A stretch of 53,584 nt of DNA, from the UHGV virus genome UHGV-0183426; one strand, 5' to 3'. The notes under the pieces are model-generated. The model made no database searches, was not told where the DNA came from, and saw nothing but the letters and a program-made list of their open reading frames with translations. This stretch comes from a virus. Shown here one piece after another: positions 49,242 through 49,806 of the stretch (its first letter is position 1; the number at the start of each line of letters is the position of its first letter). Position numbers and translations under genes: made by a program.

Positions 49242-49493
49242 TTAATCATCCTCTTCATCGTCTTCTTGTTCAGCCAGGAAATCATCGACGTCACGGTAAG
49301 TGACTGGCGGGATGTATTCGAAATCATCAGAATCAAGATCAAGCGTCCGGCTGTCGCCGTCATCGTCCAGCGTGCTCATCCCCAACTCACCGAAAGGGCC
49401 GTACCCAATGTGGCCCAGGTATTCGCAACCAATCGTAAAGCCAGGGTATTCGCCTTTACACCTGATCTTGTATAGCTTACTTGATGCGCTCAA
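49242..49493 (-). CDS. hypothetical protein with highly acidic C-terminal half
   Basis: 83 aa; C-terminus DDDGDSRTLDLDSDDFEY...EQEDDEEDD. Confidence 0.45.
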   Translation of the reverse strand: MSASSKLYKIRCKGEYPGFTIGCEYLGHIGYGPFGELGMSTLDDDGDSRTLDLDSDDFEYIPPVTYRDVDDFLAEQEDDEEDD

Positions 49494-49806
49494 TGTCAGT
49501 TCCCCCTGTTACACCTTCAGTCATTTTGTATTCCGCAACCAGTTCAGCGCCAACCAATCCCACATCAGCATTAGCTATGCCAGGGAACGCCAGATAGGCA
49601 AAAATAAGGCTTTTAATTCTATTCAGGTCTTCAAGATGTTCTGCATTAAAAGGCGGTTCAGATACGTGAAAGCATTTAACGTGCGCATCGTCTTCAGTAG
49701 CTACACGGAAACATACTCAACGTTCACCTGCGAATTGTCCAATTTCTTTATCTTCTGGAAAAGTGCCACGGAAAACTTTAACGCTGATAAATTTAGTCAT
49801 TTTCAT
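49477..49806 (-). pseudogene. small gene interrupted by an in-frame TGA at 49717-49719
   Basis: manual translation: 29 codons, TGA, then 79 codons with no start codon for the first about 50; same frame throughout. Confidence 0.45.

Follow-up and report, generated by a model that had tools for sequence, protein, structure and literature searches.

Several kinds of in-frame UGA codon have been described. In coliphage Q-beta, programmed UGA readthrough of the coat gene yields A1; the stop is conserved there, and the sequence past it encodes a functional domain that the virion requires. Bacterial selenocysteine genes combine the UGA with a SECIS hairpin directly downstream, and in prfB-type +1 frameshifting, an in-frame UGA lies early in the gene in a CUU-UGA-C slippery context. 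Under genetic code 25, Gracilibacteria and Absconditabacteria read UGA as Gly; recoded gut phages carry suppressor tRNAs, and in E. coli genetics, glyT-derived suppressors that insert Gly at UGA are known. UGA is also the leakiest stop codon, with readthrough lowest when U is the +4 base (PMC5289835), and in wild-type E. coli, where tRNA-Trp is set against RF2, readthrough reaches ~2% at 37 C and ~4% at 25 C (PMC10570021). Ordinary nonsense alleles and nascent pseudogenes of flexible accessory genes also occur in temperate coliphages and prophages, here those of the mEpimmI group (PMC11893012). The gene described below resembles them in having a single-base premature stop in a non-core gene; some members of the group do not have it, and in others it bears independent nonsense or frameshift lesions.

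The window analyzed here, a stretch of 53,584 nucleotides taken as a whole, is a complete, circularly permuted temperate coliphage genome of this mEp021/'mEpimmI' group (PMC11893012). We consider it a circularly permuted whole genome because its ends are contiguous in relatives, with relative L116 aligning across positions 2-389 and 53579-52521. A scan of the GTDB genome_contigs set, which holds one genome per species, returned no relatives and was uninformative. One minus-strand gene of the window contains an in-frame TGA that resembles the Q-beta stop in being followed by an open frame in a coliphage gene, and the decoder would likewise be tRNA-Trp in competition with RF2; unlike the Q-beta stop, it occurs in one lineage only and replaces a near-invariant Gly within a conserved domain. 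As in selenoprotein genes, the UGA stands in a continuous ORF, but the window has no SECIS-like element, and the residue in orthologs is Gly (once Cys, once Ser), with no conserved Cys. As in prfB, the UGA comes early in the gene, but the CUU-UGA-C context is missing, and the +1 frame is closed after 5 codons. Both in-frame UGAs of the window fall at Gly positions, a point shared with a UGA = Gly code; in contrast to reassigned codes, there are only two such codons, ~28 ORFs end in TGA, the phage genome carries no suppressor tRNA, and the hosts of the group, E. coli and Shigella, use the standard code. Compared with ordinary nascent pseudogenes, nothing substantive differs, apart from the lesion having been caught unusually early.

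Coordinates and setting of the interrupted gene

The minus-strand translation of positions 49477-49806 reads MKMTKFISVKVFRGTFPEDKEIGQFAGER, then the in-frame stop, then VCFRV...IERIK and a closing stop. A preliminary description of this DNA had reported a frame cut by a TGA at 49719-49717 and open from there for 79 sense codons to a TAA at 49479-49477, and the translation agrees. It had also placed the start at the ATG at 49806-49804, which would give 29 codons before the TGA. That ATG overlaps the TGA (49805-49803) of the upstream gene and is too near the AAGGAG Shine-Dalgarno sequence, the spacing being only 1 nt, compared to 7 nt for the second ATG, at 49800, which is the start in every ortholog. 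The orthologs and the spacing make it almost certain that translation begins at the second ATG, which leaves 27 codons, not 29, before the stop. The predicted product of the interrupted gene is an N-terminal peptide of 27 amino acids. Table 1 lists the features of the locus together with a companion TGA elsewhere in the window and the lesions found in orthologs.

Table 1. Features of the interrupted gene, its surroundings, and related lesions (positions in the window)
Feature	Position	Strand	Description
Interrupted gene	49477..49800	-	107 codons, uncharacterized family phrog_23107; interrupted by a TGA at codon 28
Premature opal stop, codon 28	49717..49719	-	GGA (Gly) to TGA, from ortholog comparison
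Ribosome-binding site and start (almost certain)	49798..49813	-	AAGGAG at 49813-49808, ATG at 49800-49798
Downstream gene	49242..49493	-	phrog_25234, 83 aa; from its probable TTG start, overlaps the 3' end of the interrupted gene by 17 nt
Upstream neighbor	49803..50057	-	phrog_32200, 84 aa; tandem paralog of 50076..50333; genuine TGA end
Q-type antiterminator	569..1291	-	PF03589; upstream of the interrupted gene, across the permuted end
Holin-lysozyme-Rz cassette	48627..47476		Downstream of the interrupted gene
Companion TGA	15382..15384	+	In an HNH_3-AP2 homing endonuclease, frame ~15007-15510
Lesion in ortholog L026			CAA to TAA, codon 26
Lesion in ortholog L106			GAA to TAA, codon 90
Lesions in orthologs L046, L027, and L126			Frameshifts
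Lesion in ortholog L022			Stop loss

The gene belongs to a long series of small ORFs, with the Q-type antiterminator on one side and the lysis cassette on the other. Its overlap of 17 nt with the downstream gene recurs in the gene calls of L116-L136, and translation of the downstream gene may normally be coupled to that of the interrupted gene. For the downstream gene, the TTG at 49493 is the probable start, as the 83-aa version aligns with phrog_25234 over 1-83/83 and, past the upstream stop, the substitution pattern is synonymous in the downstream-gene frame. The GenBank annotations of mEp554 and mEp044 give the downstream gene a later start (59 aa). Two tandem paralog pairs lie on the minus strand, one at 49803-50333 (84 and 85 aa) and one at 51368-51832 (79 and 71 aa); the members of each pair are divided by a same-frame TGA, and they are ordinary adjacent genes, not interruptions. 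On the plus strand, an antisense ORF of 172 aa at 49300-49818, which spans the interrupted gene and its neighbor, was picked by a longest-ORF caller; in orthologs, the corresponding antisense stretch stays open for as few as 60 or as many as 182 codons, and we rejected the ORF as accidental.

Orthologs and the origin of the lesion

To place the frame in its family, orthologs were collected from E. coli and Shigella phages and prophages of the mEpimmI group, giving ~80 loci and 210 protein clusters. The window itself lacks the uninterrupted ORF of ~107 codons that characterizes phrog_23107, as the TGA intervenes at codon 28. When Gly was restored at position 28, the repaired 107-aa sequence matched phrog_23107 over 1-107/107 with an E value of 1.1e-60, and this full-length match puts the continuity of the frame far above chance. 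A single 324-nt CDS is annotated in four GenBank phages. The intact 107-aa ORF is present at 38 of the 42 IMG/VR loci and in 42 of the 46 orthologs from GenBank and IMG/VR combined, and 13 of 15 metagenome alleles are complete and uninterrupted, with a sense codon at position 28 in 15/15. The 210 clusters, which came from a search of 5.8 billion proteins, are nearly all exactly 107 aa long and all from E. coli or Shigella. Of 97 aligned sequences, 95 have Gly at residue 28, the others having Ser and Cys (one each), and in the first 46 orthologs, the codon is GGC (37 times), AGT (6), GGA (2), or GGT (1). Pairwise dN/dS is ~0.36 for codons 1-27 and again for codons 29-107. Because the orthologs are 107 aa long, Gly28 is kept, and dN/dS is equal on both sides of the stop, the intact form is one gene for a single protein, and purifying selection acts on it. 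The comparison with orthologs, which had been proposed as a check, thus bears out the view that the two parts are one gene: the orthologs have a single 107-aa ORF and never two separate genes.

A Pfam search of the 107-aa product gave no match. AlphaFold2, run with 97 homologues, gave a model of moderate quality (pLDDT 72, pTM 0.64) that puts residue 28 at the predicted start of the second beta-strand; searches with this model against PDB and BFVD produced no significant fold match, the best having E values of 0.05-0.07 and a query-normalized TM of ≤0.40.

The alleles nearest the window (L005, L116, and L117-L125) have GGA at codon 28. Two of these relatives, L120 and L125 (ENA ERZ28583193 scaffold_38 and Logan SRR7828829_95), are 99.8% identical to the window, with 11-12 mismatches over 6,255 bp, and within the gene, they differ from it only at nucleotide 82, where GGA stands against TGA. 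The change is C to A on the plus strand at 49719 and G to T on the coding strand. When compared with the first 46 orthologs, the T at position 1 of codon 28 is the sole window-private nucleotide in the gene, and the 10 substitutions private to the window lineage in the 6.2-kb stretch comprise 3 intergenic, 3 synonymous, 3 missense, and 1 nonsense. An origin by two substitutions from GGC was considered and was dropped once the GGA alleles turned up. No other stop at codon 28 was found among the first 46 orthologs, IMG/VR, the JGI metagenomes, the metagenome alleles, or the close relatives. Because near-identical phages differ in the gene by this one base, the lesion is one very recent G-to-T transversion in a gene without further decay. 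The intact frame downstream of the stop reflects the youth of the lesion and not selection for readthrough.

Three of seven GenBank relatives, the viable phages mEp021, mEp013, and mEp515, do without the gene, and at least six further independent lesions were found in its orthologs (Table 1). Since it is missing in viable relatives and has been hit independently elsewhere in the family, the gene is dispensable for the phage. The nonsense events of the window and of L026 lie two codons apart. The integrase gene of the window, at 19485-20024 (minus strand), is also truncated: it encodes 179 aa with only the catalytic part (PF00589), compared to 396-411 aa in relatives. The integrase of the relatives has an N-terminal arm-binding domain, whereas the window has a C-terminal fragment, and the alignment with prophage L142 ends at window position 20122, inside int. 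The window lineage may be unable to integrate. The functions lost, those of the 107-aa gene, the integrase, and the HNH endonuclease described below, are ones not needed for lytic growth.

A six-frame scan of the window for pairs of ORFs in the same frame detected just two in-frame TGAs within real genes, the second being that in the HNH_3-AP2 homing endonuclease, where it cuts the AP2 DNA-binding domain and spares HNH_3. The HNH element, a mobile insertion, is shared with mEp021, mEp515, and mEp010 and missing from the other relatives. At the site of its TGA, the window reads AGG TGA TCT, while mEp010 has GGA and mEp021 and mEp515 have GGG in place of the stop, so that this event, too, took Gly to opal by a G-to-T change. 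Of the two options offered in the preliminary description, that both genes are decayed or that the phage tolerates or uses UGA readthrough, the first holds insofar as each gene was hit by a nonsense change at a Gly codon; decay goes too far as a term, as each carries one fresh point mutation and nothing further.

Competing accounts of the in-frame TGA

The continuous frame could in principle be read as two independent genes, a short one for a peptide of 27-29 aa followed by a separate downstream gene, and gene callers have indeed annotated the 29-aa ORF on an ENA contig. Past the TGA, though, the first in-frame ATG, GTG, or TTG is a GTG at 49563, 51 codons on, in keeping with the earlier statement that the second part has no start for about 50 codons and is no independent gene; the same distance led us to set aside re-initiation past the stop. 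As all orthologs have one ORF, the profile match runs across the stop, and in L118 the 79 codons at the 3' end receive no gene call, a two-gene arrangement is so improbable as to be negligible. Extremely unlikely as well is a programmed recoding event, in which the UGA would be deliberate and would yield a regulated full-length protein by stimulated readthrough, selenocysteine insertion, or frameshifting. It has in its favor that UGA is the leakiest E. coli stop (PMC5289835, PMC10570021), that the downstream frame is perfectly intact, and that the genome holds a second in-frame UGA. The stop is not conserved, however, and is missing even in relatives 99.8% identical to the window; the intact frame is accounted for by a young lesion; and the ortholog residue is Gly rather than Cys or selenocysteine. 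A search against Rfam, SECIS included, gave no match in positions 49000-50300 at E ≤ 10, and a 76-nt stretch that begins 6 nt before the UGA folds with a minimum free energy of -15.3 kcal/mol compared to -14.4 for shuffles (z = -0.35), so we rejected a SECIS or structured readthrough element. Frameshift rescue was rejected likewise, since the +1 frame stops after 5 codons and the -1 frame after 8. The suggestion that this phage uses UGA readthrough does not survive these results: the stop is missing in every ortholog, there is no SECIS or stimulatory structure, and a near-invariant Gly28 could not be restored by tRNA-Trp. Global recoding had already been called unlikely, and it is excluded by a tRNA/tmRNA search that found none in the genome and by the stops of 99 crude non-overlapping ORFs, of which 65 are TAA, 28 TGA, and 6 TAG. 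The premise that most genes here terminate with TGA is contradicted by these counts; TGA is nonetheless a working stop that closes many conserved genes, including the one directly upstream.

If the true base were G, codon 28 would be GGA and the gene intact, and a sequencing or assembly error of this kind would need to have changed one base only. G-to-T is a known class of oxidative library artefact. The TGA allele was found neither in IMG/VR nor in the JGI metagenome collection nor in 5,426 complete E. coli genomes, in which no 71-nt match exceeded 97.2% identity. Against an error, the window is identical to the ENA contig NODE_122_length_53584_cov_146.377496 of ERZ1034955, with ~146x coverage and recorded in 3 samples. 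An independently made MEGAHIT contig with a different consensus (ENA ERZ27289114 k119_115368, 54,081 bp), which has 1 mismatch to the window in 21,422 bp and is identical to it over a further 6,255 bp, carries both the TGA of the interrupted gene and that of the HNH gene. The exact 29-aa truncated product occurs on 3 contigs produced by the ENA and Logan pipelines; some dependence between the three contigs or samples is possible, as they could come from one individual or from reassembled runs. Nor does the window have an excess of private changes: its 21 singletons at otherwise invariant sites fall within the 5-125 seen in relatives, and its 14 recent private changes within the 0-22 of controls. 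G:C-to-T:A changes are not enriched genome-wide either, making up 5/21 of singletons compared to 166/1168 and 3/14 of recent private changes compared to 31/130 in controls, and on these figures, we also rejected 8-oxoG or a mutator, at genome scale, as a shared cause of the two TGAs. An error is thus very unlikely, and this indirect support argues that the TGA allele is real and borne by a natural phage lineage of gut metagenomes. A suppressor host, in which UGA is read as Gly, for instance by a glyT-derived tRNA-Gly(UCA), would make GGA-to-TGA changes near-silent and leave both genes functional. Such suppressors do exist in E. coli genetics, and both in-frame TGAs replace Gly codons. From the codon usage of the window and the substitution spectrum of the family itself, the calculated share of GGA to TGA among expected nonsense events is 2.8%; two such events running have a probability of ~0.08% among all nonsense routes, and that of both arising from GGA, given two TGA nonsense events, is ~1.4%, while any two nonsense events would be of the same type in ~7% of cases. 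This is a post hoc statistic with n = 2, however, and an accessory gene and a homing endonuclease are of the kinds that commonly decay. The truncated integrase fits a general loss of dispensable functions, the phage encodes no tRNA, and strong suppression would lengthen the products of all ~28 ORFs that end in TGA. We regard a suppressor host as very improbable and treat the shared Gly-to-TGA type as an unexplained coincidence, though the two changes may have a common cause. In a host that decoded UGA as Gly with useful efficiency, the two changes would not be independent accidents, and the phage would still produce both its 107-aa protein and its HNH endonuclease with Gly in place.

Probable consequences of the nonsense allele

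Altogether, the TGA is very probably a very recent G-to-T nonsense mutation that created a loss-of-function allele of a dispensable late-region gene. In this account, one G-to-T change would have turned the Gly codon 28 of a small accessory gene from GGA into the opal codon TGA. Translation from the ATG at 49800 would stop after 27 residues, and the last 79 codons, for want of a usable in-frame start, would give no separate protein, such that the allele would be null or strongly hypomorphic. Unprogrammed UGA leakiness might still supply full-length product at a few percent, presumably with Trp at position 28; the base after the premature UGA is G (UGA-G). Such a product, with Trp at the near-invariant Gly28, would probably be impaired. 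Lower translational coupling to the overlapping downstream gene is a further possible effect.

This is ordinary biology, with no evidence for recoding, and the TGA allele teaches nothing new on translation or the genetic code. The best annotation of the locus is a single interrupted gene that starts at 49800, entered as a phrog_23107 pseudogene or nonsense allele; a 29-aa ORF plus an orphan would be a wrong annotation, as would the spurious 172-aa antisense ORF. The natural TGA/GGA pair in genomes that are 99.8% identical could serve as a handle on the role of a widespread, uncharacterized gut-coliphage gene.

Two minor observations concern other parts of the window. Within the HNH element only, there is a local excess of G:C-to-T:A changes, which account for 5 of ~7 window-private changes (14909, 14930, 15352, 15363, and 15382), unlike in the flanks. 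Finally, a segment of ~100 bp at ~46558-46666 shares 92-95% identity with rV5-like coliphages (FV3, V5) and with records labelled Campylobacter phage; it sits in a region of small membrane ORFs between 46655..47197 and the small terminase and is a short mosaic or mobile fragment.
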